Shown: positions 7,758 to 41,081, counted from the stretch's first letter. The stretch: 64,000 nt of DNA from Psammoneis japonica (GCA_008632985.1 QPGO01000045.1:124001-188000), one strand, 5' to 3'. The notes: generated by a model from the sequence alone, not told the origin. Translations and numbers: made by a program.

Positions 7758-8607
7758 TTTTCTCAAGATTCTCGCTTGAATGTTCTGTGGAACAACGTCT
7801 TTTTGCGTTGAAAGGCAGGTTCAGTCTTGTTTCTTCCAGGAATACAAAAACAGGCTATTGGAAGACTAAGTCAACAAGCTTTGCAACTGGAAACTACTAA
7901 ACAATAATATGCGACAAGCCCTCCAAATCTCGAAATGCAACAACGCAACGAACGTGTGGAGCAATGACTTGAGAAGAATCTGTGAGAAAAGAAAATTGGA
8001 TGAAATTGAAATTTTGAGACTGCAGCCGACGTCACATACCACGAGAAAGCGTAGAATCTACCTGACAGATCTTTTCTGGTTGAAGTGGGCGCGACAAACA
8101 ATCGAAATCCATCCGGAATTCTCGCAACGAAAACGTGACATCACCATGCATTAGTTTCGCGCGAAATGCATTCAAAATATGCTCAGATACGTTTATGGAG
8201 GATAAAGTGATTGATTTGGGTTCGGCGAGCGGTCGTTATTTAGGTTCGAGGATACTAAGAAGATCATAGATGTATTCAGAATCTAAAATATTATAAATCT
8301 ATAAAATGGTTTGGTAGTAATAAAGGCTGGAGGCATAATTAATCGGACTCGCCCTTTGAGAACTCATTCGTATATTTGTACGCAAGAGTGGTACGACAAA
8401 AAGAAAAAATGCATTCGAATTAATGAGGATAAATCAGCTCTTTATATATGCTGAATATGTACTATATATTCAGCATTTAATGCTAAGGAATACGCACTAT
8501 AAAAATTTGTTCACGACCGCCTGTTCTCCCCAACCTGCCGTTCTGCAGCCAAAACGACAGATACCGGTATCGCATTGCACAAGAGGCAAAGGTGTTTATG
8601 CAACACC

Positions 8608-10547
8608 ATGGCGTTGCAAAGGGTTGTAACGGCATTGGCTGCTGCAAGCAGTCTTTGTGGAACGGCCAATGCTGGTAGTTCCAATAATGTCGCGTCTGTA
8701 CCTCTCGAGCAAGTGGTGGATGGCATACGAGGCTCGGTATCAAGCAACAACAACAAGCGCAGCAGCTTTAATTTCACTAAGTGGGCAGAACGACGCGGCC
8801 CATCCCAAGAGGAGAGACAACAAGAAGCCATTGCGCGTTCTAGACGCATGAAGGAACGAGCAGAGCGTGCAAGAGAGCGTCTCGCGTCCGTTGATCCTGA
8901 TCCGAGTACTCTGGAGCGCATGACAAAGGAACAAGTAGACAAAATGAACAGCGATCAACAGGACGAGGATGAGCATTCATGGGTGAGGAGAGCCGGGTGG
9001 GCGTGGGGAGGCGGTGGTGTCAGCGGTGACTATGAGCCTTATGATCTTCAAAACATGATGGATCCTAGTCAGGAATATGACAAGTGGGCACAGGCTTATC
9101 GTATGCTCGGTGGGTACATTGACTGTGATAACACGAAATCAGAAGGTGGAAGTCATGATTCTGGTGACAATAACAACGGTGACGGCGATGCCCAGGCATG
9201 CTCTCGTTGGATGATTTGGGCTGCGGTAAGTTGGGTGAAGAGAACTTGTTGCTATGTTATAGAGGGTGTGCTCTGGTACAGCTTACTGTACTAATGTGGT
9301 AGGCAGAACGTCAACTAACTACATCTTTCGCTTTGAATGCTTTGTTGCAGTATGTCAATCCAGACTACCAAGGAAACGAATACTACGAGTATTTCGGCGA
9401 CGATCCCACTAGTGTTTTAGACTGTCACAGTCCTGACTCAAACTGGAAGCTTCTTGGTATCTACCGCCAGGAGTTTTATCAGTACATTGAACAGATATCA
9501 AAGCATCTTTGGGCCATTGACGAGTACGAATACATTGTTGCTCTGGCCGGATTGGCCTACATGACAGACTATGACTGCTTTTACGTTGGAGCTTCCGGCA
9601 GCGGTGACTCGATTTACGCTGGAGTTGTACCAGAGGAAGGAGGAAAATTCAGAATGGGTCTCTACACGGATACCTATTGCATTTACGAAAACACAGACCT
9701 AGGCATGACCTACGATGACTTTGGAATGGAAAGTGACATCAGTTTGGGATCGGGTGACAATGGTTATTATGACGAGGAAGTGTACGAATGGTGGCAGGGG
9801 GCTCAGGAGTACAAGTTAGAATTATTGAATGAGGTATACGATTCCTTTCGTTATTGCACGTCGTGCGTTGATTACCCTACCTACCAAGACGGGTATTTCA
9901 TTGGAGATTACGGAACAGACGACGATGATTTGATCAATCAGTGCTGGAAATTTTGGTCTCACGACTCCTTTGTATGTGGAAGTGACTGCATTAGCAAGGC
10001 TCATTCTCAGGGAACGATTCTTTCCGTCAACTATGGAGGCGTCACGTGGGGTACAACCCCGAGTTCCTTTTACTCCTCAAGCGCTAGCGGCAGGCGCGAT
10101 TCTCGATGGAGCCGCCTTGCAGCCAACATCTTTTTGACCTTGTCATTTATGGTGTTTATTGCCACCTTTCTGGCCTTTGCCGTGGCGCGACGCTCGCGGA
10201 ACCGTGAGCGCAGGAGTTCCAAGCACCGCCGATTGTTGGGTGACGATTCCCGCCGCCGTCGTCGCCGCAAGGAGAGTGGCGACGGTGTCTATCGTTCCTC
10301 CAAGTCGCGCACTTCGAGCCGAGGCCGTCGAGAAGGTGATGGCGATGGAGTCTTTCGGTCGAGCCCGAAATCTCGTCGGAGCTCACGAGAACGGAGAAAG
10401 TCGAGATCTTCCTCTCGTCGACGTGAAAACGGTGATGGTGGATACCAGCCACCGTCTCTTCCCGAGAGAGGCGAAGAACGTAGGCGAGGTAGCTCTCGCA
10501 ACCGCAAGAATTCGTCATCCTCTGCTAGGCGCGATGACGAGTTTTAG
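8608..10547 (+). CDS. Diatom-type Cys/Tyr/Asp-rich single-pass membrane protein with Arg/Ser-rich tail, 2 exons
   Basis: Exons 8608-9225 and 9351-10547 (gtaag...ttgcag intron); signal peptide, acidic Cys-rich domain (AYRMLGGYIDC, CSRWMIWAAY), TM helix IFLTLSFMVFIATFLAFAV, basic tail. Confidence 0.85.
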
Positions 10548-10795
10548 AAGGAACACCTGCCTCATTTATCTATGTATCGAGTCTTTGAGAGTGCCTATCT
10601 CGTGCAGAATGTTAACCAATGGCATCGTACCTTGAAGACTCGCCTACCAAATATATGTCTTAATCAATTAGGTTCAGTGATTTTTCATGCAAGTTCAGTG
10701 CTCTGTCGCCGTCTACCAAGACAGTTGAATGAAGCGCTGAGTTTTCATTTCACAACGCGTGATGCGGTATGTTCAAGCGGTTCGCTATGATAAGT

Positions 10796-11455
10796 TTAGC
10801 TTTCAGAAGAAGCACGTCCTCTCCCACTACCCCCACGACCTCTTCCTCTCCCACCTCCTCGTCCACGGCCACCACGCCCTCCTCCACGACCACCGCCTCT
10901 ACCCCGTCCGCCACGTCCAGACGTTCTCGGCGCACTCTGGTATTGTTGTTCTTGTTCAGCCGCACGTTCCAACAAATCGGGTGGAAGACGAAAGTACTTG
11001 ATTGCAGATCCGCGTATATAACAAGAAGGAAGCTTCCAAAAGCGGTCGCCATCTTTGGACGTGCAAATGACGTCTCTCAAATTCATATTCATCCATGCAT
11101 CGCAAGATACCAACCGTCCATTGTACGTATCACCGCCTTTGAGTTCCACCAGCAATGGCGACCCTGTCGCTGCTCTCAGCAATGATAATGGTAACTTTAT
11201 GAAATTAAAAGATGAAGAAATCATAAATCAAAGGTAAGTGAGCTAAGATTTGACTGACAAGCCGAACAGCGGGCATGCAACAGGCAGTAGTGCGCCGCGA
11301 TTTCAGAAGATTTCTCACTATCATGTAAAACGAGGAAGATGTATCTGCTCGTCCGACTAACTTCTTGATGACAACAACCAAATATCGATGCTTCTACCGC
11401 AGCTTTTCATATTGCAAAAATATTAGATGCCCGCCGCTTCAACACAACTCACCAT
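10796..11455 (-). CDS. LSM4: U6 snRNA-associated Sm-like protein LSm4
   Basis: [44 protein letters not shown] plus RGG tail; main exon 11194-10796. The start micro-exon is either ATG|gtgag at 11455-11453 or ATGATA|gtgag at 11324-11319. Confidence 0.93.
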
Positions 11456-11574
11456 GGTGATTTCTTGTGTGCTGTCAACTACTCGTCAACACTCAATCAG
11501 CGACAACGGGCCCGAACGTGTGACGGACGGACTGTCGGATTCTCCAAATCTCTCACAATTTCAAGTGTGGCAAT

Positions 11575-11736
11575 GCTGCCAACTGTCATTGACCCTGTTG
11601 GTGGTGATGCCATTGTCATGTTTGACCAACAGTCAAGTCACAGTGGTCTCAGTTGGCTGCCAGCTGTCATTGACCCTGTTGGTGGTGATGCCATTGTCAT
11701 GTTTGACCAACAGTCAAGTCACAGTGGTCTCAGTTG
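11575..11736. repeat. Tandem duplication, 2 x 81 bp
   Basis: gctgcc(a/g)..tcattgaccctgttggtggtgatgccattgtcatgtttgaccaacagtcaagtcacagtggtctcagttg at 11575 and 11656; one mismatch. Confidence 0.95.
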
Positions 11737-13939
11737 AGAGTTGTTGCAGTTTCTTGAACTGCATGCCCCACATTTCAAAATGCTTGAGAGTCACTGCAGT
11801 TTGAGCCACAAGCCCTGCATTTTAAGAGACTGCTTTCTCCATCAACTGCAGTGGGTTGGCCAATTGCACTGCTGCTCACATGTGTTGCTGGTGCATGGGT
11901 GCCTCCATCAAAATGAGAGTCCTGCACAAGTGCTTTCCCCCGCGTCTTCCTTGCATTGTGAACAATCAACTGCTTTGCACGAGACAGCTGTGGATCAAGG
12001 ACTGTCTGGCATGCATTTGCAAGAATGTTCTGATGGACAATCAACCGCAGCGATGGCTTAACTGATTGGTTTTGAAAAGCAGCATTTGTCGTGACAATCG
12101 CTGTCATGCAAGCATCGTGCGTGGAAGAACCCTCGCCAACCAAAAGCGCAGCTGTTCCATTGCTGTTTCAGACTCACTTAAACCTGCTCTCAAGAGATCT
12201 GCACTCTAGCCACCAGCCATTCACATGCGCAGGCACTTCTCAGTTTTCATTGCGGAGCTGAAGTTTGCGTGCAGTCTGTGATAAAAACCACACTCATCGC
12301 AAACAGAATCAAGAACAACTGACAAAAGAATCTGGGTTTGAATCCCTTCTTCACAATTCCCGACAGGCAGGGTTCACAGGCCAGTCAAAGCACGAGATGT
12401 CACATTTGTCGATGAATTGTGGGCACACAAAAGTGCCTGTGAAAGAATTGCCGAAAAGACGTAAAAACTGGCTGCACACATTTTGAAACAAACCAGAAAA
12501 GGCGGGGGGACTTAGCTGCCAATGAATTCATGCAAACAATTTCCATTGTTTGAACTAACAAACTTTATGTCATGTGACACGTTTCTCACGACGCACTTAC
12601 CTGAACTTGTCAATGCAGCCATTTCACTGGGAACGGTGCCCGTGAGAGCATTGCAGCAAATGCTCACCCTTTCTGTAAATGTGGGAGAGAATTACCAGCA
12701 ATTTAGAATCATCACATTACATGCCAAAGAGGAATGAGACAATGCATCGCCTCAACGGATGTCGCACTCACCCAAACTTCTTAATGAGCCCAATTCACTT
12801 GGAAGAGTGCCTTCGAGACGATCATTGAAGTTAAGGCACAAATCATCTGTACAACCAGGAGAAAGAAAGAAAGAAAGAAAGAAAGCATCGCAAGGTCAGA
12901 ACCCACGGGGTAGAAAAACAAACAGTGCAACCCATGCGGCACTCACTTAATTTCGTCAGCAAACCAATTTCTGTGGGAATGGTGCCAGTGAGATCACCCA
13001 CTTCGAAGCTTAAAGAGGCTGTGAACATGAGAAAGCAATGAAGGCAGCGACCAAGTTAGAGGCCCATGCAGCAGGGACATGGCCCCATCATTTGCTCAAG
13101 CCAGCGACTTGACAGTTTACCTGAGTCGGAGAGCAAGCCAAGATCTCGCGGCATCGATCCCTGCACCTGGTTGTGACTCAAATCTAGTCTGCCAACATCC
13201 TGACCAAAACATGTTAAACCATGCCAAGCACACTCATCGCTGTCATTCAACCACTCCTCCTTGTTCTCCCAACCAATTCCATTGGTGCTGTAGCACAAAG
13301 TGGCCAGTGCAAAGCGCTGCATTTTTTGCTCATCTGAACAGTCGTCAAGAAATGCGTTTCCTTCTAGCCAAGACAAGGCCCGGGACTGAGGGGAGGAAGG
13401 ATCTTTGAGTGACTCACCAGCATCCAATGATGCAGTTGCAATCAGATCTTCCACCGCAGACATTGGCACTGGTGCTTGGGTTGCTGGTGCTTGGGTTGCT
13501 GGTGCTTGGGTTGATGGGCCGCTTGATTCCCGGAAAACCACAACAACTAACACAACTGCAGCAACAGCAGCAACCAACGCAAAGAGAAGAAGGAAAATGC
13601 CCATTCGTTTGTGTCTCACCAACCATGAAAGACATTTTTTGTTGTGACTGTCTCCATTGGCGGAAGAATGAACATCATCCGCAACATTCTGAGTTTGATT
13701 GTCAGCAGAATGAATGATTTCACCTTGCGGTGCATTTTCCATGGCGGCAACCCGTTCCCACAATTGATGGACTTCTTCAAGCATCTCGGTGCAGTTGTCA
13801 TTCTCCACTGACCTTGCTTCCAGAACTGGTGGCGCGGTTGCTGTTCTCTCGCTGTCACAATGGGGAGCAATGGGTGGGGCCCTCGTTTGCCTCATTGTTT
13901 TGTTTCCTGGGTCTCGTCCTGAGCCCCTCACAGTGACAG

Positions 13940-14146
13940 TGTTCGAGGGCTCCAAGGGCTGCATGCACTCTGTCTTGTTGCAAACTTTTGCTTTTCTGAC
14001 ATTGTGATCTTTCTGATCTGTTCTGTCTAAATTCAATCTTGTCAAATGTCTTGTGAGTCTTGCTGTTCTTCGAACTTCTTCATCTTCTAAGATCTTCTGC
14101 GGGATTCCCGACCAACCCGATTCAATCTCGGGAACTCCCTCCGACA
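13940..14146 (-). repeat. 3' LTR
   Basis: TG...CA termini; direct repeat of 18651-18859; preceded on the minus strand by a polypurine tract. Confidence 0.93.
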
Positions 14147-14160
14147 CTCTCCCCTCGGGA
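14147..14160 (-). promoter_or_regulatory. Polypurine tract of the Copia element
   Basis: Minus strand cccgaggggagag directly before the TG of the 3' LTR. Confidence 0.8.
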
Positions 14161-14169
14161 ATCTCGTGC

Positions 14170-17100
14170 GTCTCTGCAGCACTCGTCATGCATTCGTCAT
14201 TGCCAACAAACTTCGTTGCATGCTTTTCAAATGTGGGGCCAGACAAATTCTTCGTAAACATGTCCAAAGTCATGTCGTCTCCGCTAACCCAGATGCAATC
14301 AACAATGCCCGCCTCCTTCAGTTCTCTCAAAAAATGCTGCTTGACTTCAATGTGCCTCGTGCGTCCGCCCACACTCCAATTGTCGATCAAATCTTTGGCA
14401 CCCTTGTTGTCAACGCACAGCTTCACAGGTGGTTTCACTTTTAATCCCATGGAATTCAACACCCTCATTGCATGCATCATGTCTTGTGCACACAAAGTAG
14501 CACTGAACAGTTCTGCTTCTGCAACCAACAGTGCAACAATGGGCATCATTTTACTTCGCATCGAAATGGGCGCCTCGTGCAGACACGTGCTCCAACCATT
14601 CACGCTGCGCCTTGTCTCCTGATCCTTTGCATGTTCTGAATCACTCTTGCCCATGACAATAAATTCATGTTCCTTGGCTCCATTCCATTTGGCATTCGGT
14701 TTCAAAAATGATCCTCTCTTTGGTGTTCCGACGCAGCATCGCATCACGCGTTTCATTGCGGCCACATGAGCTCTCACAGCACCACTCATGCACCTTGATG
14801 GCTCCCTCACTGCATTCAAAATTTCGGGTCTCGTCCATCTCATCATGTGTGACAACTTTCCTGTTCCAGATCTGTAAATCTTTTGACCTTTGTGGTCCAT
14901 CATTTCTTTGTCGCTGCCTTTCACGAGTGATGAGCCACCTGGTGCTGGAGTCCTTGGACAAGTTTCTTTTCCCAAATCAAACTCGTCTTCAAAGCTCTGC
15001 ATCATCACTGGTTGAGCAAGTTTCACCCATCCTTTGTCTCTGTTGATGTCAACCTTGCATCCAACATGTTCTTTTAATTCTCCTAACTCGGTGCAGTCAA
15101 ACAGTCCTTTCATTTGATCTTTCACTTCTTTCACACGTTCTGTTGGTCCTGCCACCAAGCAATCATCAACCCAAGTGAGCCACATGACCAATCCTTCCTT
15201 AAACCACTTGAACTGTAAACAAGGATCAGCTCGGCTCCTCGCATGTTCCATCTTCTTGAATGCCTCCTGCGTTTTGCGCAAAATGACATCGCCGCTTGTT
15301 TCAGTCCACAAATTGTCCTCAACAACAACAACACGACGTTTTCTGGATAGAATCTCTCAAATCCTTGCGGCACTTTCACATGGAGTTTCTCTCCTTCAGC
15401 AAATCTTCCATTCAGAAATGCTCCTTGAACATCTGGCAGTTCGGCCCACAAATTTGCCACAACAATCAACACCAGTGCGATTCGCACTGTGATGTCATTC
15501 ACCACTGGTGCTGACTTGTCACTCTCCTTGTGGTGCTCTCCATCAATTTGCTCAAATCCACGAGCATCAATCCTTGCACGACAGGTTCCGTCTGCTTTCT
15601 TCTTCATGGCCCACGTCGAACTTAAAATTTTCGCGTCGCGCGGCACCTCATCTGCTGGCACTTCTTTCCAGGCCTTGCACCTCTGGAATTTGTTGTGCTC
15701 TTCCTCGACTGCATCATTCCATTCTTCCACATCATCAGTCTGCATGGCTTGGTTGTGCTTCACAACCTTCAGTTCCACAGCATTGTCGAATCCGCCTCCA
15801 ATCCCGGCTCCGACCAAAGACACTTCTGGTTCTTTCGACTCCAGTCCATGCATGGCCATCGGATCGAAACCATCTCCACAGAATGATGACAACTCATTCA
15901 GTTCCTTCACATGAGCATAAAATTTCTGCTCAGCAGGTGTCAATTTGACGTTTTCAATCTCCGCAATGAGTCCATCAGGCGGTTTCACGGCTCTTCCAGA
16001 TCGAGTCATTGGCGCATGTTTTGGCACAGAATCGGCAGATTCGCCCGATTCATTCATCTCTCCCCCGCCAACAGACTCGTTAGGCTCCTCGTCATCACTG
16101 TCTTCATTTTCACCAATGTCCACCTGATCTGCACTCTCCCCGACTTCCACATGGGGTTCCTGAGTCAACACTTCAGGTGTGATGTCTTCTCCGGGGTGCA
16201 CTGGCTCTCCAATCGCTTCCTGGCGTTGACAGCACATGCGCTTCAACCAGATGATGTCGCGCATCACGTAGATGGTCCCTGACTTTGGGTCCAACATTTC
16301 ACAACAGTCTCCGTCATGATCAATGGCGTGTCCCACCATCACACACTGAACACCTCGATCAGCAATCTCAGGTGCACTTTTCTTCTTGACAGTGACCGCA
16401 CCGGCCTCTCCCCATGTGCGCAGATGCTTCGCAAATTTTGGAATTTGACCCGACCAGTGCTCGCATCGCGTGGCCACTTTTCCGTCTAGCTCGACAGTCA
16501 TGAGTCCGTCCAACAATGTCACAGTTTCAAATGCCTTGGGAAATGCCTGACACCTCATGTCCAATGGCACATTGGCATGATGCATGACAGCTCTGCCTTC
16601 ATTTGCCAAACTTGCGAATCCCAATTCGGCCAAATGATTTTGTTGCGGCGTGTTTCTCGCGGTGAACTCAAATTGCAGATTCATCTTCCAATCACTGCTC
16701 TGAGCTCTGTCTCTCAACTTCTTGTTCTCACCAGCATTGTCAAGCCTCACACACTTGAGTTCCTTGCCTGCTTTAGTCCACTTGCTCCACTGTTCTAGTG
16801 CAGGCTCCACCATGCTGTTCTTCGTCTTGAAAAATTTTGAAAATTTCAACTGCGTGCGCTCGTCGACCACAATTCTCCAATGGCGCTTGGAGTTGACCTT
16901 GGGACCCTCCTTGAGTTGCTTGATGCTGGCAATGTCCAAAAGCACTCGATTGCCTGCACTCTTAGCTGGTTCGTGTTGACTCTCCTGTGGCACATTCTTC
17001 TGCTTGGCTTTTCCCGCCGCACACGATTCGCACGGCGCCATTCCGCCACGAGCAATTTCCCAACCCAAAATTTTTGCAATGCGTCTCGTCTCATCTTCAT

Positions 17101-18580
17101 TTGGATGTCCCAATTCACAATGAGCTTTCTCAATGCTGAGCTTCCTTGGCATCATTGTGTTGGCCACTTCACCTTGTCCTCGTTTCATGTGCATCGCGAA
17201 TGCCATGCCTCGATTCGTGCGCATCTTGACATCAAATTTTATCTCGACGCCATTCTTACAAATCCATGTTGCATTTTCGTCACCTCCAAGTGTCCATCCT
17301 TGCATCTGCATCTTGGCAATGCTGAATGGATTGAACTCATTGCTTGATGCAATGCTCACATCCTTCAGAGTGGCACCCACAAGCTCACATCCGTTCTTGT
17401 CGCACACGGTGCCCGGTGAGTCGACAACAGACTTTGCTCCTTCTTCTGCACCATTGCTGGCGGCCAACTTGTCATCAGCAGTTGCTTGTTTCACGTTCTT
17501 GGCACCTCTCATGCTTGCACAAGAATGAACCGATGATCCTGAATCCGCCACCCATGCTTCTTCTGACTCCAACAATTTCAGAGTCGCTGGAAATCCAATG
17601 GTCTCCGCACTCGTTGGCAACAGCTCGACTTTGGCTCCGGCATCAACATTTGACAATCCGGTCTCGTTGCTTTTCTTCTGTTTCTCTTTAAACCACGCTG
17701 GAACCTTGTCCGCATTGTCAGGATTCATCCAACAATCCTTGCTCCTGTGACCCGTTTTGCCACAGTTGAAGCACTTTCCTTTAAATTTCTTGTCACCACC
17801 TCCACCGCCTTTCTCAGGCTTCCTCGGCTTGGTGCACTCACAGGCCTCATGCCCTTTCTCTCCACAGTTGTGACACATGACACTCGACTCTGTCGCTGTC
17901 AAACTAACTTCGTTTGTGCTTTCTGACTCGGAATTGCCACTTGCATTCCTCCACAACTGTGTCATCGCTTCTTGCAAATGCTTCATCTTCAATCCGTTAC
18001 CTTGGATGCGTTGTTCAGTCATCACAACTGACTTGCACACCTTGGGCGCTTTCTCAAATGCGACGGCAATCAACTCATCATCGGGAATCTTGTGTGATGC
18101 CGCATTGAACTTATTCTCAATGCCCTTCAACTGCTCGAACAATTTTCGAGGTTCTTCGTTGTCCTTCAACGTCACCTTGTTCATTTCGCGACGTAACTCG
18201 ACCTTCGACATCAGGTCCTGCAGCATGCACATCTCGTGCAATGCCTCCACCATTTTCCATGCTAGCCCACTGGGCCATTCAGTTGTCTGAGATGCACGCA
18301 CAATGCCCGTCAGTCCTTCCGCAGCAAACACCATCGTGAAGTTTGCTGCTGCAACGGCACTTCGTTTCTTTGCTTCTTTCTTCTTCTTTCCATCATCAGC
18401 AGTTTCATCAATGACGTCCGTTTCAGCATTTGGCAAGTCCGCTTCAACTGTCTCATTCATTGCTCGCGCAAATCCGTGCACACTGGCATGCGCAACCATC
18501 CTCATCCACCAGACCTGAAAGTTCTCATGCTCACCATCAAAGCTTGGCAAGCACACCGATTTCTCTCCTGCAATCTCCAT
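14170..18580 (-). pseudogene. Copia gag-pol, frameshifted near 15280 and Tyr-depleted
   Basis: CHNCGEKGH and CFNCGKTGH knuckles, WVADSGSS protease, HxxLGH...CESC, RLDNAGEN, TPQQNHLAE integrase, DVQGAFLNG, WVDDCLV RT, DNKGA/RTRHIEVK RNase H; split across ORFs 15131..18592 and 13056..15311. Confidence 0.92.
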
Positions 18581-18629
18581 CTTGCTTGACACTCAATTGT
18601 CTTTCTTATCTCACAGCCTCTGGGGCCTT

Positions 18630-18650
18630 CGCCTGTCACACTTCGAAGTG
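18630..18650 (-). promoter_or_regulatory. Putative non-canonical primer-binding site (complementary to a tRNA-Asp anticodon arm)
   Basis: No TGG-type PBS after the 5' LTR; minus-strand gtgacaggcg, 11 nt from the LTR, is complementary to CGCCUGUCAC of eukaryotic tRNA-Asp(GUC). Confidence 0.45.
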
Positions 18651-18859
18651 TGTTCGAGGGCTCCAAGGGCTGTGCGCACCCTGTCTTGTTGCAAACTTTT
18701 GCTTTTCTAATGTTGTGATCTTTCTGATCTGTTCTGTCTAAATTCAATCTTGTCAAATGTCTTGTGAGTCTTGCTGTTCTTCGAACTTCTTCATCTTCTA
18801 AGATCTTCTACGGGATTCCCGACCAATCCGATTCAATCTCGGGAACTCCCTCCGACTCA
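18651..18859 (-). repeat. 5' LTR
   Basis: Direct repeat of 13940-14146 with about ten substitutions; outer end ccgactca has 2 nt more than the other LTR before the TSD. Confidence 0.92.
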
Positions 18860-19500
18860 GACAGCTCCGGGGTTCACATGTCCAGAGACACCGGTAGATT
18901 CGGAGGACCTGGAAGCAGTGGCAATGCCCACAATTTCAGGTCTTGAAGCAACAGTGCCTTCCGCATGTCTGCCCATGGGAGCCTCAGGCTTGGAATCGCC
19001 ACTGTCAACGTGTTTCTTTTTCCTGCCGGCTTTTCTTGAGTTGCCTTCGACAAATGAAGGAGTGACTGCAGCTTTTTCTCTATCCGTGAGCCATGGGACT
19101 TCGCTGGCAAACAAGGTCGGGCGCTGGGCGTCCTTCTCACTCTTGGTGTTGCTCATGCTTCTGTCCCAGCAGCAACACTCAGGTCACGAGCAACGCAAAA
19201 TAGCAGCAATTTGCCAATGAGTGGTCAATGAAAATGATTCAATCACGGATCGTATTTCGTTTCCTCGCGCGGGTTCCCGGTCGTGGTAAATGCAGTGGTC
19301 CTGCGATTCAAACTCGTGGTCATCGCTGTGTCGGCAGCTTGTGGCTACTCTGCTCCACTAGAGAGTCTGCCCGTGAGATCTTCGTTGCTGTCGGCATCCA
19401 TGCCGGTCACTCTCTCTGTTGGCTTTAGGTGGCAGCAGGCCCTTAGAGCTCACTGCCATCCTCTCGCCTCTCGCATCCTTCTGGCATCATCCCTCCTGTC

Positions 19501-20855
19501 ATGATGGCAAGGTTCTTTTTGCCACATCAACGGAAGGTCACGGTGCCTCTTTTCACAGCAATGATCCTCATGTTGACGTTTGCTTTTCTCATCCTCCCTG
19601 GACTCAACATGGACTTTCTTGAGCATCGTCAGACCAAGAGCGCCACTCGCGCTCAAAAGGTGTCAATGGAGTCGTCATTTCACGACAAGAGCATTGCATG
19701 GTCTCCGGATGTTCGCCAATGCTGGCTCAATGATGATCATGTTGGCAACTCTGAAAAACCTCCAGCCCAAGTGCTCTTGACTAACTACGGTTGGAACCAG
19801 GCAAATCAAAGCCATGCATTGAAATTCTTCAGGTCCCCACGACAGCGAGAGTTGCTTCGAGGAGTTGTCAATCACCCGTGGTTTCATCCAGCAACATGGG
19901 AGCAGCACTGCAACCGTTCAGCACCATTGAGCAACCAAACTCGGCATTGCGTCTTTCTTGACGTGGAAACTTGCTGTGAACGACTCTGGCCCTGGCATGG
20001 GGGCGAACAAGGAGCGAGCAATGCAACCTCTGACACAGGGGGGAATCGCACTGGCACAACAAGTCGCGATCATTGTGAAGTGATTGAGGATGCATTGAAC
20101 CAGCCAATTGTGAAGTTGCCGGGTTCCAGGTTGACAGTTTTTGACTGTGACCGTGCAGGACCCTCAAAATGTGCAAGACGAGACAGAAACAAGGACGAGA
20201 GATTAGCGCTGGTGTCCCTTTCGGCTCATTCCAGACAACACATTGCCTCGATCGACCAGGGCATGCCACCTCCGGCATGCAGACCTTTTGAGTTGAACCA
20301 AGAACAGTGGGAAGGCGTCACATCTTGCAATGAAACCTCGCGTCCAGTCCTGGCATCATTTGTTGGAAAATTCCGATCCAAAGTGAGGAACGACCTGAGG
20401 ACACTCCACAATTGCAAAGACCTTTTGATTGAACAACCGTCAGTTGTAGAGCATTGCTTTCCATGCAACAATTGCTCGCATGGAGAATTGTTCTTTCGTT
20501 CCAGGTTTGCACTGACACCCCGCGGCCAACACCTGTTTTCGCATCGTTTCACTGAGGCAATGTCGGTTGGGGCCATTCCCGTGGTGCATGCAGATGATCA
20601 TGTTGTGCCTTTTCAAAAGGAGCTTGTAGATTGGAGCAAATGTAGTGTGACAATCCCAGAAGCAGATTTCAACAAAACAAAGGGCATTTTGTTGAGCATC
20701 TGGCCGACGAGCAATGTCGCACGCGCCAAAACGCATTGGAGGTGCATGACAGGTTCATGAGGACAGGCGATGGCACCATTTCTGGGATCATTGAAGGATT
20801 GGAGCATGCATTCAGAGGAACCCACGCTGGTTGCTCATTTGGTCCATCATTGTGA
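19501..20855 (+). pseudogene. Exostosin-family (GT47) glycosyltransferase, hypermutated, frameshift near 20700
   Basis: N-terminal TM anchor; LASFVGK, SRFALTPRG, FSHRFTEAMSVGAIPVV, VPFQKELVDW motifs; one Tyr in 419 aa with family Tyr positions reading His/Cys; the C-terminus continues in another frame. Confidence 0.8.
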
Positions 20856-22199
20856 ATGCCGCGCACATTGAAACCAGCAACGAATTGAATCATGCATCAC
20901 CGTCATCAATGTCACCAGCCAGCTCAATTTAGAAGTGCATGCAAAGGCAGCAGTGGCCCCTTTGACAGCACCAAATTGGAGGATGCTCACCTTGTCCTGC
21001 TTGCAGGCTTTTTTGCGTTGATTTAACTATGAAAGCAAAGCAGTGATGAGCAAATCTTCTTTCTGCAGGTCTCACTCGCATGGCACCGTGAACTGTGAGG
21101 TGGCAAAAACTCTGCAGCGACTGGAGATCTCAGCAGGAGGCCTTCCAAGTTGACTCAGAGGACAATCAGCTGACCAACTTTGCACACCCAAGGATGCTTT
21201 AGCCAAAAGTCTGATCTAGCCTGAAGCATTGGGTCCAGACAGTTGGGAGCTGAAAAGAAGATTGAGAAAAAGTGCTGCTTGGCGGTTCTCCACAAAATCA
21301 CCTTCACTGCATGTTGCAAGATGCGCCAAACAGTGTTTGAGTGCATCATCTCTCATTGCACCCACGTTGTTTGGGCCCAACACAAACAAGCAGAAATTGT
21401 TCTTTGTCATTCCAAGAGCAACAAAAACACTCATCTTGGGAAAGCAGAGCTTCCCAAGGAGCCCCAGAGTTAAAGCAGAGCTTGCACAAAGAGAGCAGGA
21501 CACCTGGTTGGTTGACAGACAAGCCATGACTTTCCCTCTTTTGCATGTCCTCCAGCTGATGCTCTTTGACATGATCAAACAGCTCAAGAGCAAAAGATTT
21601 GACTCACACAAGTGACGCACATTTGGCGCTTCTCAGCCAATCCACAAAAGAACAAGAAACAGGCAGCACACCAATGCAAAAAGCTTCCCTTTTGGTGCTT
21701 TCTCAGCCAGCGCACAATGAGGAATCTCCACAGCACCAAGAAAGAGTGACCAGGACCTGCTGATGTGGCAAAAGAGAAATGTTGGCAGCAGGGCTTTTTT
21801 GGCCACTTTTGCGCGGCATTTTCAACTTCAGAGAAAGAGCTCAAAAAAAGACCCAGTGCTGTGGTTGCTCTTCATTTTTTGTCAACTTCACTGATGACCA
21901 AGCACCTCTTTTTTCTCTTGCTGCAGCTGCTGCCATGGCGCCATTGTTCTGGAGTGTGCTGACAGCTGCAGTGCTTTGAGTGCATGTGCAACACAGTGAG
22001 CACTTTGTTTGTCAATGACGAAGGTGACACAGCCACTGTCACGGCACAGCTGACAATGATGGAGAGGTGCTGGTGTGATTGCCAAGGTGCCCAACAGCGC
22101 TCTTCATCCCTTGACTTGTTCTGACCAGCACAAAAGAGTTTTTGTTCACTTTGTTTTCAGCCAAGGACCATCTTTGGAATTTTGGGGAGAAGATGACAG

Positions 22200-24990
22200 T
22201 GGCAAGTGAAAAGAAAAAGAGTCGAGCCAAACCAAGATCAACAAAGAACAAAACCCAAATTCTGTGTTCAAGGTGCTGCTGCACTTCCACCCTGGTGCAA
22301 CTCCGGCAACAAGCTGGCCCACACCCCCAGTGCACCAGCAGTGCGGCAAGGGCATGCAACGACTGGCCAACATTGGCACCACCACCAGGTGGTGCCAAGC
22401 CAAAACAACTGGTGACAGCGCAAGTGCCTTTTGCAGCAAGACGTTTTGCTTCGCCAACACTGGACTTGAAAACAGGTCGAACCACAGTCAACCAGTTTCT
22501 CAATCTGTGTGTTGAGTGCACCAGGTGTTCTTCAACTGAATCAAACAGGTGTGCCTTTTCTCTTGCCAAGTGGTTGTCAATGCTGGAGCATGTGGCCTTG
22601 ACTTCCACCTTGGCATCTTGTCATTGGGATGATTTCCCAGTCTTCGAATCGTGTCCGTGTGCTGCACAATTGTGCGAATCCCACAACTCCCACCATTGGG
22701 ACCACACGCAAGAGACCACTGTTGCTGCCCAGTCCAGTTGTCAACCTGTGTCCACATGTGCCTCACCACCACTGTGTGACAAGCAGGTTTGTTGAGCAAT
22801 GTTCCATTTGACTGAGAACCCACCATCAAAAATTTGATGCCACCACATCCTCTCTTGGGAACAGAAGACCAATTGCATGCTGTGATGAACACCATCAGAA
22901 CAAACAATTTCTTCATGGAACCAGGATTCCAAACACACTGACAGCATGCCTTGCAACAATGGTGAGGTGGAGATGTCATCACACTTCTTGCAGAGACCTT
23001 GAAGAAATGTCCGATGCCATTGTTCATTGTGGGGACATCAAAGAATGTGGTCTCCATCCTCCATGGGATGCTGGCAGTGAACACAACAATCCGGCCGAGT
23101 GGGGGGTGCATCTGTGGACAATCTCATTTGCAGGCAAAAGATCTTGAACCAGCTTCGCTGCACTGACTCGCTGGTGAATGTTTCTGGACATCAGCTTCAC
23201 ATGGACTTGCCAATCAATGGTTTTAAATGTCTCCACAGACCATCCACACTTCTCCATCATGTAATCTCGGAGAGCCAGAGATGATGCTTCATGGCGTGAC
23301 ACTGGTTTGAAGTTTGCATTGACCAACGAATCATTGACCACAAGTTCAGCTGCACAGCGAGGGAATTGCGGTGCCAGCTCCAGCTGCTCTGAGCACATGC
23401 CGTGGCACCTCCCCGCCAAGCAGTCCACATGAACACATGATTTTGCCGGCAACGACAACTGCTCATGCGGGATGGAATCGTCCTGGTGACTCTTCACCCA
23501 CTGCACCACCACTGGGGTGCCACCGGAATCATCAACTGAGTGTTCTGAAAGCTGTTGAAAGGAATGCATGATTTCATGTGGGACATCCCAGTCAGGGGCC
23601 AGTGCACTCACAACATGGTGTTGATGAGCGCAGTTGCTGACCGGATCAGGAGATGCTTCTTGGTCATCCAATGGAGGCAGCTTGTGAGACGACAAAGCAG
23701 CATTGCAAACCAGCAAGGAATTGTTGCAATGAGAATCAATCCCCCCAAAGAAAACCTGTCTGAATGCACTCCACAACTCGAAGAACAAAAATGGAGGACA
23801 GACAACAGTCTCCACATGCTTCAGCTCCACAAGAAGAAGGCCGTAAACCGAACACTGGGCCCGCACAATCAGCCAAGGGGTTCCCATCTATGGTCAAAGT
23901 CCATCCAAATGACCCATCGAAATCCACCACCAACCCATCACTCCCCACCACAGCCTCATTGGTTCACATGATGTCAGCCAGTTCAAAAATGGAAACAAGT
24001 GAGGTGAGGTCGTCAAATGAAGTGACCTCCCAAGGAGAAAGAGATTCCAACATTTCCACAAAGTCGTTGGGAATTGGCACAGCCCCAGGGACAGAAACGG
24101 CTGTTCCACAGTTGACAACATGCCATTTTCCATTGTCAATGGCATCCACAGTGATGGGTGCCGCCAATGGGGAAATGTCTGGTGCGGTTTCTAGAGAGTC
24201 GACAGAGTCAGCAATGTTGTCAGTCACTGGAAACACTTCAAATTGGTTGTTGGACCGAATGTGCAAATGCTCTTCAAATGGCTCATGGCATGCTGCAAAC
24301 TGCGAACATCATTCTCATTCTATCTGCAGACACCAGCCAATCACCCAGAGGCAATTGAAGCTCCAAAGCACCTTCTTCACACAAGAGGGAACAAACCTTG
24401 TGCCATTGAGTCCATGCACAAGCAGACGGGGGGGCTTGTTCAACTGGGTTCAGCACAGACACGCTGCTCAACAAAGAAGGATCTCCTTTCACTTTAGCAG
24501 CGTCCAGAAACCTGCCTTCCGGTGGGCTTCTTCAAACCACTGCAGCTGAGTTGCTCATTTCCTGGTGGAATTTTCCATCAAACTTTCCACAAGAAAACAC
24601 CGCCATCATGCATGCTGACTGCATGCTTGGCTGCTCTTGTCAATGCCAAGGGTTGTGCCCTGGCACTGGACAAGATGAGCCAGTGGGGAGATGTTCAAGC
24701 ATTTCTTTGTCAGAGCTGACCCACCATTTAACTTGGGAAGTGCCCGCATCAATCAAAGATGTGCAGCAACCCACACGAGACTCTGTTTTGTCGCTCTGCT
24801 GGGTCCTCAGCCAACAACGCGAGACTTTCTTGGCTCCTCCCACAGCGCCCATCACCTGGTGGTGTTTTCAACAGTGCACCGAACAAGAGGCAATGTGCAA
24901 AGCATCCCAGGGCACCGAGGTGATTGACAGCAAAGGGGGGTGAAATCAGACACTGGCATGGTTGAAGTTAGAGAGAACTCAGTGAAAAGC
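22200..24990 (-). mobile_element. 5'-truncated non-LTR retrotransposon with RNase H (Ambal-like), decayed
   Basis: Fragments GSDG..GSFGW..GPVFG.RPSSCGAEACG, QWVKSHQDD, TIDW, WHQIFDGGFSVKW and LRNWL in collinear order across frameshifts; boundaries approximate. Confidence 0.72.
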
Positions 24991-25119
24991 AGGGGCCGGT
25001 GCGCAAGATTCACGCGTTATCTTCTTTCCAGCTGCATGACACGTGTTCACAATTTGACGAAATTGACATCGATCCAGAACCGATCAAGCTCAAACGAGTT
25101 GCATAAACAAACGAAAACA

Positions 25120-25803
25120 ATGGCTCGCCCAATGTCACATTGCATCGTGTTGCTTTTTGGTGTCTTCTTCTTCGCGCCAAACCAATGCGCCGCATTTGCG
25201 CCGCAACAAGTGTCATCGACCACTCGACGACAACTCGACACTACTGCTTCTCGTGCATTGCACATGGCGGCCCCACCAATGGTGGGGGACAACGCTGATG
25301 AATCAAAGATGTCTTCACAAACTCGACGTGAGTCAATCAAGAAAATATTTGGAGGAGTTGGTTTGGCGTGGTTGTCCATATCAAACCCGGCATTTGCCGA
25401 AGAGGAGATGGAGCTCAAGCGTGCAAACAATGCCAAAGCGGCCTTTGACGACTTGCGTTTCGAACTCAATGATCCCAGCGGTGGTGTCGCATATCTTCAA
25501 TCTAAAATTGACAAGGAAGACTTTCCTGAAGTTATGGAGTTCACAAAGGGATATGATCTGGAACTACGAAAAAAGAAAATTGGACGAGCCAAGAAGCAAT
25601 TGACAGACGTTGCCTTTCGAGACACGGCTACGCTGACGGCGAATGCGATTACGTTTGATTTGATTGGGATTAACCGTAGTTCGAGACCGGGACAAGAAAA
25701 CAAGGAGCAAGCCAACAAGTATCTTAATGAGCTCCGGACTGACCTGAGTAACATGATTGACTTGGAAAAGACAATCGACTACGAAGACATCAATACGTTC
25801 TAG
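25120..25803 (+). CDS. Plastid thylakoid-lumen protein, PsbQ-like
   Basis: Signal peptide + AAFAP, twin-arginine TRRES + hydrophobic stretch + PAFA cleavage site, helical mature domain (YDLELRK, FDLIGINR); 227 aa. Confidence 0.8.
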   Translation: MARPMSHCIVLLFGVFFFAPNQCAAFAPQQVSSTTRRQLDTTASRALHMAAPPMVGDNADESKMSSQTRRESIKKIFGGVGLAWLSISNPAFAEEEMELKRANNAKAAFDDLRFELNDPSGGVAYLQSKIDKEDFPEVMEFTKGYDLELRKKKIGRAKKQLTDVAFRDTATLTANAITFDLIGINRSSRPGQENKEQANKYLNELRTDLSNMIDLEKTIDYEDINTF

Positions 25804-26044
25804 TCCAGCCTGCTACGCTACTTCGAACCAGACGTTGATTAGAAGCTAAGTTAGTGTGAATGTGGAAAACGAATCGATCGAGATTGAATCAACGCTACAA
25901 ATAGCAATGTATCAGTAACTACGGAGAGATCTGCATCATGCGATGTTTGTAATGATGTGAGATTCATACCATTTTGCAGGCTTTCGTTTTCATTGTCTTT
26001 ATTTGTTCGGTGGTATTGTATCCATTTGAATTATAGGCATGCAC

Positions 26045-26734
26045 TCAGAAGTTTGGTCCTAGCCACTTATGGAATACGCTCTCCATGGAGACAAAATCAG
26101 TTGGCGCAACTCCAGTCTTTTCGTTGTTTTCTCCGCCTATTCCTCGGACGTAGGCTTGCACCACTAGCTTCTCGCTAAACATTTTGGAAATGTTCTGTCC
26201 CTTGGAATTTCGCTTGACAACTACATCAATACCCTCTTGTGTTTCATCCCACTGAACCAAGAACACAAGCCCGCCATCAACGCTGCCCTTTTCTTTTGTC
26301 TTTTTACGAAGAAATGTCAAGTCAACACCACCCTCTGGGGTTGGAATGTATTGCAATGGCTGAACCGGAAGCACTGCCGAAAATGGAAATGATTGAGTGT
26401 ATTTTTGAACCTTGGCCAAGGCTTCATCCTTGTCAACTCCGTCATTCACAGACAAGTGAACTCGTAGCAGCGTTTCTTCCTCTCCACCCTGAGACGGCAC
26501 CGGAGCTTCCCATGGAAAGCCTCCACCGGTACTAGACAAATACAATCGTGTGGATCCAACGAATCGGTCACGAAAAATAGCTTTTCCATCGAAAAATAGC
26601 TCTGTCGTTGTGTGTCTCGGAATGAACGAAAAAGATTCAAAACCCGTGCTAACAGTCCGGCCCTTGGATAACGGTATAAGCGCAGCCTGTTCCCTCACAA
26701 ACATCAACAGAAGCAACAACCTCTGGACAATCAT
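26045..26734 (-). CDS. Hypothetical protein with N-terminal signal/presequence
   Basis: 229-aa ATG-initiated ORF of normal composition; globular C-terminal part (FPFSAVLPVQPL, FLRKKT.EKGSVDGG, MFSEKLV). Confidence 0.75.
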   Translation of the reverse strand: MIVQRLLLLLMFVREQAALIPLSKGRTVSTGFESFSFIPRHTTTELFFDGKAIFRDRFVGSTRLYLSSTGGGFPWEAPVPSQGGEEETLLRVHLSVNDGVDKDEALAKVQKYTQSFPFSAVLPVQPLQYIPTPEGGVDLTFLRKKTKEKGSVDGGLVFLVQWDETQEGIDVVVKRNSKGQNISKMFSEKLVVQAYVRGIGGENNEKTGVAPTDFVSMESVFHKWLGPNF

Positions 26735-31940: not shown

Positions 31941-32407
31941 AATAACGATGATTTGCGATCTCGACAGGTCACAATGATCTCGTCGTTCAACAAAATGGGA
32001 TTTTTGAAATAGAGAAGCTCGACATTGGGTAAATTCAATTGTGCAGGGAAGGTCTACGGTACAGTAGCAGTGGCCCGAGGCACCTGATTCGACTGTCTAC
32101 CACACTTCGTGAAGCTATTACTTAGAGTCTGTATGGTACTCTCTACACGTAGATAGAGAGAGTCGCACAACATATGAACTGATATTCTCTATCTTATCTC
32201 TATCGATCGGTACTGTTTGATCCAGCAAGAAGCGTGAGTGAAATGAGATCGAATCTTACGCAAGAGAAACACGACTTGCGTAGCGCGTGGTACAATTTCT
32301 ACGGTAGGGGTAGGAGCAGGAATCCGCGTGAGTCAAACGGGTCATTTCTGAGAGGCGGCGATGGCGCTGGTCACCAGCAAAACATACCGCAACGCAAGAA
32401 CGCAACC

Positions 32408-40861: not shown

Positions 40862-41081
40862 CGGAATTCATTGTCGACTTCCTTCTGCTACTACATAGAG
40901 TAGCTGCCATTCATTGTGTCATGTCATTTTTTGGCGATGGCGATGCATGGATGATGGATGGATGTCGATACCTAGCGACAGGGTTTTCGCACGAGAAGGT
41001 CACACCCGCTTTCGGACAAAGCTTTGCTCAAGGGTCACTCTCTACTGCAGATGTCTGCAATGCAAGCAAGCATCATGATAG

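Follow-up and report, generated by a model that had tools for sequence, protein, structure and literature searches.

Erased blocks and the elements within them

The window, by which we mean the whole stretch of DNA that was analysed, comprises 64,000 nucleotides of one strand from Psammoneis japonica (GCA_008632985.1 QPGO01000045.1:124001-188000). It is a mosaic of six normal stretches and six blocks from which TpA has been erased: the observed/expected ratio (O/E) of TpA is 0.67 in normal DNA (mostly 0.43-0.89 per kb) and 0.09 in the erased blocks, and that of CpA/TpG is 1.62 in the erased blocks versus 1.12 in normal DNA. The block that holds the main finding, at 11501-25250, with limits set by eye from 250-base TA counts, has a TpA O/E of 0.00-0.25 per kb and CpA and TpG at 1.3-2.0; 51 of its 96 residual TA are YTAR and 2 are RTAY. 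TpA counts place two further erased blocks at 1-2750 and 3751-5500. Those at 41001-51750, 52251-59000, and 59751-62750 retain 64 TA (29 YTAR, 2 RTAY), 27 TA (13 YTAR, 1 RTAY), and 20 TA (11 YTAR, 3 RTAY), respectively; the first contains four MITE copies, M2 to M5, and the second is very poor in CpG as well. Erasure extends over whole blocks of up to 13.7 kb, and the 1652 TA and 951 CG lost from erased DNA are about balanced by the 1071 TG and 1368 CA gained.

Erased DNA includes a Copia element, MITEs, a GT47 gene copy, and unclassifiable DNA, while the Ostalpha gene (Pfam match, 3e-90) sits in normal DNA and is spared. With regard to duplication as a trigger, the affected DNA is repeat-derived, yet three tandem gene copies at 35474-40685 (72-74% identity) and one MITE copy are untouched.

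The Ty1/copia-type element lies on the minus strand of the main block. Its LTRs, at 13939-14145 (3′ in element orientation) and 18650-18856 (5′), form a 207-base direct repeat with 95.7% identity and enclose a hypermutated gag-pol region in two frames (14146-18649, minus strand; ORFs 15131-18592 and 13056-15356), with Pfam matches to RVT_2, zf-CCHC, and SH3_retrovirus that are each weak. The LTRs differ by 2 single TA-type differences and 2 CA-versus-TG doublets, changes made after insertion. Within the coding region, protein conservation sets the direction of change, from Tyr to Cys (TGY) or His (CAY). The element has 298 relatives, the best being 52% identical, and its Tyr content is 0.35%, versus a median of 2.7% in 120 of them. 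At the 23 columns with a conserved Tyr (Tyr in at least 60% of at least 35 relatives), the window has 9 Cys, 8 His, 3 Tyr, 2 Phe, and 1 Gln. Conserved codon-initial A now reads G in 25 of 29 cases after T, in 2 of 30 after A, in 2 of 71 after G, and in 1 of 48 after C (5 of 149 for the non-T bases combined). The same pattern is seen in a hypermutated exostosin/GT47-like ORF at 19447-20760 on the plus strand, also in the main block (Pfam PF03016, E 1.4e-19). It has 1 Tyr in 437 residues, compared with 15 in 447 for its closest relative, P0243, and at 11 positions where P0243 has Tyr the ORF has Cys or His, the polarity here being taken from this one relative, at 62% identity.

The MITE copies provide a before and an after state. 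M1, at 51889-52284 (plus strand), is unmutated, lies in a small TA-normal island, and has 30 TpA; M2, at 45222-45617 (minus strand), is mutated and 92.4% identical to it. Over 396 aligned columns there are 30 differences, every one a transition, of which 24 fall at TpA, 5 at CpG, and 1 elsewhere (another A/G change). Thus, 24 of the 30 TpA of M1 were converted in M2, 13 to TG and 11 to CA. Sorted by the 5′ base, the A sites changed number 24 of 60 half-sites for TA, 0 of 77 for AA, 0 of 45 for GA, and 1 of 49 for CA. Repeat comparison identified a more diverged, mutated copy, M3 (44073-44470, minus strand), and two plus-strand copies of one subfamily, M4 (45953-46336) and M5 (46480-46868), which differ by 6 single TA-type differences and 9 CA-versus-TG doublets (doublets counted by eye).

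That MITEs, a gene copy, and LTRs after their insertion were all affected implicates a process at the DNA level. Repeat-derived and silent DNA in P. japonica has undergone hypermutation of TpA to TpG or CpA, each TpA taking a single hit on either of its two strands.

As a separate observation, CpG loss accompanies TpA loss in the erased blocks; it is slower, and its context dependence is different and weak. This loss is compatible with deamination of methylated cytosine.

Flanks of lost and surviving TpA

The TpA that survive in erased blocks are not a random remainder. Among 216 residual sites, 109 are YTAR (50%), 57 YTAY, 41 RTAR, and 9 RTAY (4%); among 1217 in normal DNA, the counts are 218 (18%), 318, 328, and 353 (29%), respectively (window-wide chi2 134.5, df 3, p 5.8e-29). 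Between 13000 and 25000, 74 residual sites comprise 41 YTAR (55%), 14 YTAY, 18 RTAR, and 1 RTAY (Fisher test against normal DNA, p 3.8e-12 for YTAR and 1.2e-9 for RTAY). An earlier note on this DNA had described residual TpA as mainly TTAA, CTAG, CTAA, or TTAG, as these counts bear out, and the four examples it cited (cttctagcc at ~13365, tctaaatt at ~14027, tctagc at ~16485, and tttaaa at ~17780) are all present. YTAR makes up 45-55% in each of the four erased blocks having at least 20 residual TpA and 46 of 70 sites in a strict core (at most 3 TA within ±250 bases), where RTAY accounts for 1 of 70. The claim that YTAR sites survive is correct in the relative sense of enrichment among residual sites; their density in erased DNA is 17-58% of that in normal DNA, and CTAG and CTAA sites are among those hit in the MITE. 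The preference is therefore graded, with YTAR also hit, more slowly.

The proposed check of NTAN survival found it to be nonuniform across flanks (16-cell test, chi2 175, p 2e-29). An additive model of the two half-sites is adequate (Pearson X2 20.2, df 12, p 0.064; LRT 198 over a uniform model) and, against a baseline of genic DNA rather than the true ancestors of the repeats, gives rates of 0.32 for TAA, 0.82 for TAG, 1.49 for TAC, and 2.44 for TAT. TpA with purines 3′ on both strands (YTAR, above all TTAA; TAAA/TAGA) is hit least and so persists. By survival, the signal is strong at +1 (chi2 154) and +2 (chi2 86) and weak at +3 to +5; from +6 to +10, just +8 is nominally significant (chi2 10.3, p 0.016). 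The fitted rates for the +2 base after TAC are 1.36 for TACG, 1.55 for TACC, 1.09 for TACA, and 2.41 for TACT, so that G at +2 is not favoured.

Strand choice and the MITE half-site counts are independent of any baseline. We collected 64 polarised events from the clean/mutated MITE pair, other repeat pairs, conserved Tyr codons, and read differences; 48 are informative for strand competition, and the MITE, which is rich in CGTA/TACG, supplies 24 of the 64. At mixed sites, where one half is TAY and the other TAR, 25 hits fell on TAY and 9 on TAR (p 0.009). TAC beats all other contexts 26:4 (p 6e-5), winning 10:2 over TAT and 16:2 over TAR, while TAT versus TAR, at 9:7 in the same competition, is not significant. 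Taken by source, strand choice is weak in the Copia Tyr codons (2:2), the GT47 Tyr codons (4:2), and the read differences (1:2). In the MITE, 19 TAY half-sites were hit and 13 were not, compared with 5 and 23 for TAR (Fisher p 0.0015); 19 of the 24 events are thus TAY>TGY on the hit strand, exactly the count that had been given as approximate. Tyr codons of the Copia element had changed in 13 of 13 cases for RTAY and in 4 of 7 for YTAY (contexts sorted by hand). These data support the view that the choice of strand is set by the base next to the one that changes, and C is the clear winner at +1 in direct competition between strands.

The T-A-Y motif of the earlier note thus stands as a preference of TAY over TAR, owed most clearly to TAC; as a three-base rule it calls for refinement, given that the second flanking base appears to matter and a 5′ A may also. 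A joint model with both flanks beats one with +1 only (LRT 17.9, p 4.6e-4). In it, a pyrimidine 3′ of A (reading the change as A>G) raises the rate about 2.6-2.9 fold; tentatively, an A 5′ of T adds a further 2-3 fold, with few events behind this term, and the second 3′ base appears to influence the rate too.

TAT presents a conflict of its own. It is the most depleted context by survival, yet in competition it stands at near parity with TAR and loses 2:10 to TAC. An A 5′ of T on the hit strand may account for part of the heavy TAT/ATA depletion seen by survival.

A candidate agent and its rivals

We infer that the agent is an enzyme reading about 4-5 bases of one strand. The most likely cause is a strand-reading deaminase of the TadA/ADAT kind that attacks adenine in DNA, converting A to inosine, which would be copied as G. 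Its substrate would be DNA that is transiently single-stranded or flipped out, with silenced or repeated sequences as the targets. For the explanation as a whole, context-dependent TpA hypermutation by this type of enzyme with CpG loss alongside, we put the probability at roughly 0.55.

The rival that survives best has the thymine changed rather than the adenine: T in R-T-A would be modified (for example to 5-hydroxymethyluracil or a base-J-like base) in silenced DNA, and faulty copying or repair would later turn it into C. A>G with a 3′ Y and T>C with a 5′ R describe one and the same change, and the sequence does not fix the chemistry; as the earlier note had recognised, TAY>TGY and RTA>RCA are inseparable, all tests being strand-symmetric. 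Dinoflagellate hydroxymethyluracil and kinetoplastid base J do occur at T before A, and 5-formyluracil mispairs with G. Repair of a modified T normally gives T back, however, and we know of no such modification in diatoms. The sole experimental precedent for TpA hypermutation, in Bigelowiella natans, was itself read as adenine deamination by its authors, by inference, in the parts of that paper covered here. On balance, we consider a thymine route unlikely.

Much less probable, and largely refuted, is the absence of any enzyme preference, with the YTAR excess reflecting ancestral repeat composition or TpA regenerated by ordinary transitions. The genic baseline of the survival data, the reduction of TAR in genes by in-frame stop codons, and the chance that old blocks approach mutational equilibrium all give it some room. 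The baseline-free results speak against it, namely the MITE half-sites, the 25:9 and 26:4 strand choices, and the complete loss of RTAY among the Copia Tyr codons. In addition, YTAR makes up 12-23% of TpA in unmutated repeat-like islands, similar to genes. TAR rises from 44% of half-sites in normal DNA to 73% in erased DNA, more than the avoidance of stop codons could account for. Finally, a first-order Markov expectation within erased blocks gives O/E of 1.62 for YTAR and 0.22 for RTAY, the reverse of normal DNA (0.64 and 1.30).

Error-prone repair synthesis of the Pol eta kind (WA>WG) in silenced DNA is slightly less probable again. Somatic hypermutation strikes TA more than any other WA site, and Pol eta errs chiefly by A>G; the polymerase shares with the diatom pattern both A>G and the preference for T 5′ of A. 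It also hits ApA and makes transversions. Here ApA is spared, as had been claimed in setting this pattern apart from the WA motif: none of 77 changed in the MITE and 2 of 30 in the Copia element, compared with 25 of 29 for TpA, and AA O/E is not lowered (1.24 in erased versus 1.12 in normal DNA). The sparing of ApA counts against a WA motif of this type, as does the near-exclusive occurrence of transitions (30 of 30 in the MITE pair); a 3′ base effect is, to our knowledge, not a feature of Pol eta.

We give still less credence to ADAR-like editing of transposon transcripts fixed through reverse transcription. ADAR likewise makes A>G changes; its substrate is double-stranded RNA and its preferred +1 base is G, whereas the diatom target is DNA and TAG is among the contexts hit least. 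The Copia element does replicate via RNA, and ADAR preferentially edits an A that is preceded by U, according to the portion of the Bigelowiella paper covered (10.64898/2026.01.13.699255). The targets that are not retroelements, including MITEs (DNA transposons), the GT47 copy, and unclassifiable DNA, contradict it, as do the post-insertion TA-type changes between the LTRs, the erasure of entire blocks, and the near equality of strands (13 TG and 11 CA in the MITE; 9 and 8 in the Copia Tyr codons).

That the pattern is an artefact of sequencing or assembly, with modified bases misread block by block, is hardly credible: base modifications could in principle disturb base calling in blocks, but contigs of 1.5-3.6 kb from a public DNA run, possibly the assembly's own sample and so no independent proof, agree with the window in erased and normal parts, each contig having 0-4 differences and the word depth being similar (56-71), and diverged repeat copies show CA versus TG at one site, as expected of real independent mutations. 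The 13 listed differences between window and run, at 11898-23570, include 4 of TpA type and 5 of CpG type (classed by hand).

Relation to known systems

RIP, in Neurospora and other ascomycetes, shares with the diatom pattern dense, context-specific transitions in repeated and mobile DNA, sharp limits, and ruined coding. Its chemistry is the opposite, C>T mainly at CpA, which creates TpA, whereas the diatom process destroys TpA and creates CpA/TpG. In place of C>T at CpN and TpA enrichment, we found TpA at 0.09, CpA at 1.62, and Tyr replaced by Cys or His.

TadA, ADAT2-ADAT3, and adenine base editors resemble the diatom process in having U or T precede the target A. The bacterial TadA substrate is U-A-C-G; its C at +1 has a counterpart in the success of TAC, not an exclusive one, with survival placing TAT at or above TAC, while its G at +2 has none. 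The U-A-C parallel drawn in the earlier note is therefore an apt analogy, strengthened by the TAC preference, that does not extend to the +2 base. Unlike natural TadA/ADAT, the diatom process tolerates or favours T at +1, and we know of no eukaryotic ADAT2/3 tRNA substrate with U at that position, a point against a deaminase. In nature these enzymes work on the anticodon loop of tRNA, while the target here is DNA. Within the parts of the two reports covered, the TadA-8e A48E editor prefers YAC (PMC13109818), and amphioxus ADAT2, one eukaryotic ADAT2 tested on DNA (in E. coli), prefers GAA rather than TA for adenine and TCG for cytosine, which counts against an ADAT reading (PMC10354150).

The closest likeness is to the chlorarachniophyte B. 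natans, the only organism for which TpA hypermutation is in print, as far as is known. According to the parts of that paper covered, mutation-accumulation lines showed A>G/T>C hypermutation at TpA alone, the target is integrated giant-virus and virophage DNA, and the agent suggested by the authors is an ADAT-like DNA adenine deaminase (Mettrop et al., bioRxiv 10.64898/2026.01.13.699255). In both organisms the changes, as described there, are almost solely A>G/T>C, are restricted to TpA, yield TpG or CpA, and are confined to foreign or repeat DNA with the remainder spared, leaving a product poor in TpA and rich in CpA and TpG. The diatom window likewise shows almost only transitions, restriction to TpA, and confinement to repeats with genes spared, the GT47 copy being erased. 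By the same account the two differ in that the B. natans process was measured directly on viral inserts, while that of the diatom is deduced from sequence in transposons, MITEs, and a gene copy, and is accompanied by CpG loss, unlike that of B. natans. The main text of the B. natans paper lacks the terms context, flanking, trinucleotide, and tetranucleotide, and no flank analysis was found in the parts covered (10.64898/2026.01.13.699255).

The dependence of TA hits on their flanks is a sequence fingerprint of the presumed enzyme. One can envision, tentatively and with the odds somewhat against it, a RIP-like defence by adenine deamination in diatoms and perhaps, in view of the B. natans work, in SAR-clade algae generally, in which an enzyme of the TadA/ADAT lineage would read single strands of silenced repeats and leave the footprint (A)-T-A-(C≥T), with TTAA/TAAA-type sites protected. 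If true, this would be a natural counterpart of laboratory adenine base editors.

Extent and setting of the TpA loss

The change studied here is made at the DNA level, is specific to TpA, depends on the flanking bases and is limited to repeat or silent blocks. We take the window to be diatom nuclear DNA, since the top named relatives of its Ostalpha-type gene (32183-33853; Pfam E 3e-90) are proteins of the diatoms Asterionellopsis, Nitzschia, Pseudo-nitzschia and Attheya, at 52-69% identity. The erased blocks, in which TpA is nearly absent, having turned to TpG or CpA, occupy 1-2750, 3751-5500, 11501-25250, 41001-51750, 52251-59000 and 59751-62750; their limits were placed by eye, with 250-base counts, and these 38,750 bases are compared below with the other 25,250, taken as normal. 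Per kb, the observed/expected ratio (O/E) of TpA is mostly 0.43-0.89 in normal DNA, where CpG is about 1, and 0.00-0.32 in the erased blocks, where CpG is variably low (0.05-1.02) and CpA and TpG are raised (mostly 1.3-2.1). Strand-symmetrised ratios, erased against normal, are 0.09 and 0.67 for TA, 0.48 and 1.00 for CG, 1.62 and 1.12 for CA, and 1.24 and 1.12 for AA. With normal DNA as the baseline, the lost TA and CG (1652 + 951) are about equal to the gained TG and CA (1071 + 1368). The excess of the products TGY and RCA lies in the expected direction (for RTAR, CA +325 and TG -2). Since CpG-derived products and strand composition confound this excess, it serves as mass balance only.

The loss of TAA and TAG leaves long spurious ORFs in all frames of the erased blocks, and the 66 ORFs of at least 150 aa are spread over the frames. 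A further 22 ORFs from the erased blocks were compared with Pfam; none carries a family, and they therefore give no extra protein-polarised sets. Two small TA-normal islands lie amid the erased DNA, one (51751-52250) carrying an untouched MITE copy, M1, and the other (2751-3750) a 113-base inverted repeat (3006-3118 / 3428-3540, 90% identical); each may have inserted recently or be shielded from the change. Three tandem paralogues with a weak HPAT-like Pfam match (35474-40685; 72-74% identical over 1.1-1.4 kb) sit unerased within normal DNA, so duplication of such divergence is probably not sufficient alone to draw TpA erasure.

An artefact as the cause is contradicted. In the sole public run containing this DNA, which is possibly the assembly's own sample, contigs match the erased and normal parts alike, with a word depth of 56-71 and 0-4 differences per 1.5-3.6-kb contig. 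In a listing of 40 of 490 differences, those in 8001-28000 all fall within the erased block, and none in 8001-11500 or 25251-28000; the 13 listed for 11898-23570 include five of CpG type and four of TpA type, as classed by hand. A high-copy repeat at 22008-24675 reaches a summed word depth of 874 per bin, compared with about 56-71 elsewhere, and 3474 at one site; many contigs of the run terminate or join there.

CpG is also lost from the erased blocks, and across 34 erased 1-kb bins its loss follows that of TpA (Spearman 0.67). A flank rule common to both is ruled out: NCGN sites survive at 0.34-0.82, context has a weak effect (chi2 34.8, p 0.0026), and there is no preference for TCG. We take CpG loss, the milder of the two, to be a distinct process that runs more slowly in this silent DNA. 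CpG is nearly gone along with TpA at 47001-57000 (O/E mostly 0.08-0.39) and far less reduced at 13001-21000 (0.46-0.82), despite similar TpA loss.

Flanking bases of the surviving TpA

The earlier note had proposed, for 13000-25000, that the TpA left in mutated DNA is mostly YTAR. The four residual sites that it quoted (cttctagcc, tctaaatt, tctagc and tttaaa) are all present, and the 74 residual TpA of that interval divide into 41 YTAR, 14 YTAY, 18 RTAR and 1 RTAY. Over all erased blocks the 216 residual sites comprise 109 YTAR, 57 YTAY, 41 RTAR and 9 RTAY, compared with 218, 318, 328 and 353 among the 1217 TpA of normal DNA (chi2 134.5, p 5.8e-29), and the full NTAN comparison over 16 cells confirms that survival is not uniform (chi2 175, p 2e-29). 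YTAR makes up 45-55% in each of the four erased blocks holding at least 20 residual TpA (the two small blocks hold only 4 and 5), and 12-23% in six normal stretches, three small repeat-like islands among them. In the strict core of erased DNA, 46 of 70 sites are YTAR and one is RTAY. Composition as the cause of this bias is contradicted. Markov O/E for YTAR and RTAY is 1.62 and 0.22 in the erased blocks, with an expectation derived from those blocks themselves, and the order is reversed in normal DNA (0.64 and 1.30).

Relative to the density in normal DNA, survival is 0.58 for TTAA, 0.29 for CTAA, 0.28 for TTAG and 0.17 for CTAG, and 0.00-0.05 for ATAN, GTAT and GTAC. Thus, YTAR persists best, as proposed, but the statement that these sites survive is too strong, since they too are depleted. 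An additive model, in which each strand of a TpA (a half-site, T-A plus the +1 base, with A>G on the hit strand) is assumed to have a rate fixed by the base that follows its A, fits acceptably (Pearson X2 20.2, df 12, p 0.064; LRT 198 against a uniform rate) and gives rates of 0.32 for TAA, 0.82 for TAG, 1.49 for TAC and 2.44 for TAT. Between residual and normal half-sites the contrast is strong at +1 (chi2 154) and +2 (chi2 86) and weak at +3 to +5 (chi2 14-18); from +6 to +10 it is nominally significant at +8 only (chi2 10.3, p 0.016). At +2, A is protective (TAAA, TAGA) and T exposing. A 16-parameter survival fit improves on the 4-parameter one by an LRT of 115, with many sparse cells. A special role of TACG, suggested by a hand count of 10 of 14 MITE TAC events, is unsupported by the hexamer fit. 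Survival data are strand-symmetric, the 3' flank of one strand being the 5' flank of the other, and the two are inseparable in them.

Direction of change and choice of strand

Five copies of a MITE of about 395 bases lie in the window. The unmutated M1 (51889-52284, in its TA-normal island) and the mutated M2 (45222-45617, minus strand, 92% identical) differ at 30 of 396 aligned columns: 24 changes fall at M1's 30 TpA (13 to TG, 11 to CA), 5 at its 27 CpG and 1 elsewhere. None of 77 ApA changed, in keeping with the earlier remark that ApA appears untouched, and our recount likewise gives 19 of the 24 events as TAY on the hit strand. By half-site, 19 TAY were hit and 13 unhit, compared with 5 and 23 TAR (Fisher p 0.0015). 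By eye, CA faces TG at the same dinucleotide nine times between copies M4 and M5 (45953-46336 and 46480-46868) and twice between the long terminal repeats (LTRs) of the Copia element. These doublets are independent hits on opposite strands of the same ancestral TpA (or CpG); each TpA site takes one hit, on either strand.

Proteins give a second view of direction. The erased block 11501-25250 carries, on its minus strand, a Ty1/copia-type element with an LTR pair (13939-14145 and 18650-18856, 95.7% identical) and weak Pfam matches. The element encodes a polyprotein with 298 relatives, the nearest 52% identical. Tyr is 0.35% of its residues, compared with a median of 2.7% across 120 listed relatives. 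In an alignment with 55 relatives of at least 1300 aa each, drawn from the first 60, there are 23 columns in which at least 60% of at least 35 aligned relatives have Tyr; the element has Cys (TGY) at 9, His (CAY) at 8, Tyr at 3, Phe at 2 and Gln at 1. A family-conserved codon-initial A has become G in 25 of 29 cases after T, 2 of 30 after A, 2 of 71 after G and 1 of 48 after C. Similarly, a hypermutated exostosin/GT47-like ORF of host-gene type within an erased block (19447-20760, plus strand) has 1 Tyr in 437 residues, compared with 15 in 447 for its closest relative (P0243, 62% identical), and 11 of those 15 face Cys or His. The ORF is either a gene copy that has died or a gene into which erasure has spread. 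Together, the Tyr losses and the codon-initial changes after T indicate that TA is ancestral and that the change is specific to TpA. A metagenome contig scan for relatives of the Copia protein, sought as DNA-level outgroups, gave 18 pattern matches, none of them confirmed.

The reading frame of Copia pol (13056-15356, minus strand) stays open across the LTR and for some 880 bases further because TA-containing stop codons are missing, an example of a spurious ORF. One relative of the polyprotein, P0050, from another public assembly, has 0.72% Tyr, below the 2.7% median of the 120 relatives, and could come from a copy in another organism that has lost part of its TpA to erasure.

For strand choice we pooled only events with both outcomes visible: 24 from M1 to M2, 6 from M4/M5, 2 from the LTR pair, 17 and 11 from Copia and GT47 Tyr codons and 4 from differences between window and run, 64 in total, 48 of them at non-palindromic sites. 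T|A at codon boundaries and non-Tyr GT47 events were left out, since the protein shows one outcome only; M3 was tabulated but not pooled, since its history and that of M2 may overlap, and the pair 63403-63613 / 41082-41304 (67.5% identical) was excluded as too divergent. Of the hits at sites that pair a TAY half with a TAR half, 25 fell on TAY and 9 on TAR (p 0.009; 24:7, p 0.003, without read differences). By source, the ratios are 13:3 for the MITE pair, 4:0 for M4/M5, 1:0 for the LTRs, 2:2 for Copia Tyr, 4:2 for GT47 Tyr and 1:2 for reads. TAC won 26:4 overall (10:2 against TAT, 16:2 against TAR), and TAT against TAR was 9:7, not significant. These baseline-free data thus single out TAC rather than, as in the T-A-Y motif of the earlier note, TAY as a class. 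The choice of strand is thus steered by the base adjoining the changed one, which favors strand-wise reading and argues against symmetric duplex recognition.

When survival and strand choice are fitted jointly by likelihood, a model with both flanks of the hit strand improves on +1 alone (LRT 17.9, df 3, p 4.6e-4) and on -1 alone (LRT 36.1). With A set to 0, its log effects at +1 are 1.08 for C, 0.94 for T and 0.10 for G; for the base 5' of T they are -0.75 for C, -1.07 for G and -1.08 for T, giving a working motif of (A>C>G~T)-T-A-(C~T>G~A). That A 5' of T favors a hit is tentative, with few events behind the term.

Candidate agents and significance

The flank preference limits the candidates to agents that read a few bases of one strand. 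The most likely one is a DNA adenine deaminase that would read them in this way. The tRNA substrate of TadA contains U-A-C, and the TAC preference in the window parallels it, as the earlier note had suggested; however, G at +2 is not favored in the fit. A TadA-8e variant is described as preferring YAC (PMC13109818), resembling the TAC preference seen here, whereas amphioxus ADAT2 acting on DNA is described as preferring GAA (PMC10354150), unlike it. A less probable agent, which would leave the same sequence pattern, is one directed at thymine, changing T to C in R-T-A. Error by Pol eta and editing by ADAR followed by reverse transcription are both contradicted: the preference for TAC, the sparing of ApA and the poor showing of G at +1 speak against them.

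TpA-only hypermutation has been measured in integrated viral DNA of Bigelowiella natans, and a term search of the main text of that preprint found none of the words context, flanking, trinucleotide or tetranucleotide (10.64898/2026.01.13.699255). Among the titles and abstracts listed by literature searches, none describes such erasure for a diatom. The flank preference therefore adds a detail to a kind of process reported only recently, and does so in a new lineage. So far, the description of that process comes from a single 2026 preprint, which deals with an unrelated alga.

Flank-preference fingerprints are what identified the APOBEC, AID and RIP-type mutators, and the preference in the window is the same sort of fingerprint. 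It predicts that, in oligonucleotide assays, ATAC or GTAC would be hit and TTAA spared, and such predictions are equally applicable to the published Bigelowiella mutation list. For annotation, the erasure means that the Tyr codons of real genes in erased blocks appear as Cys or His.
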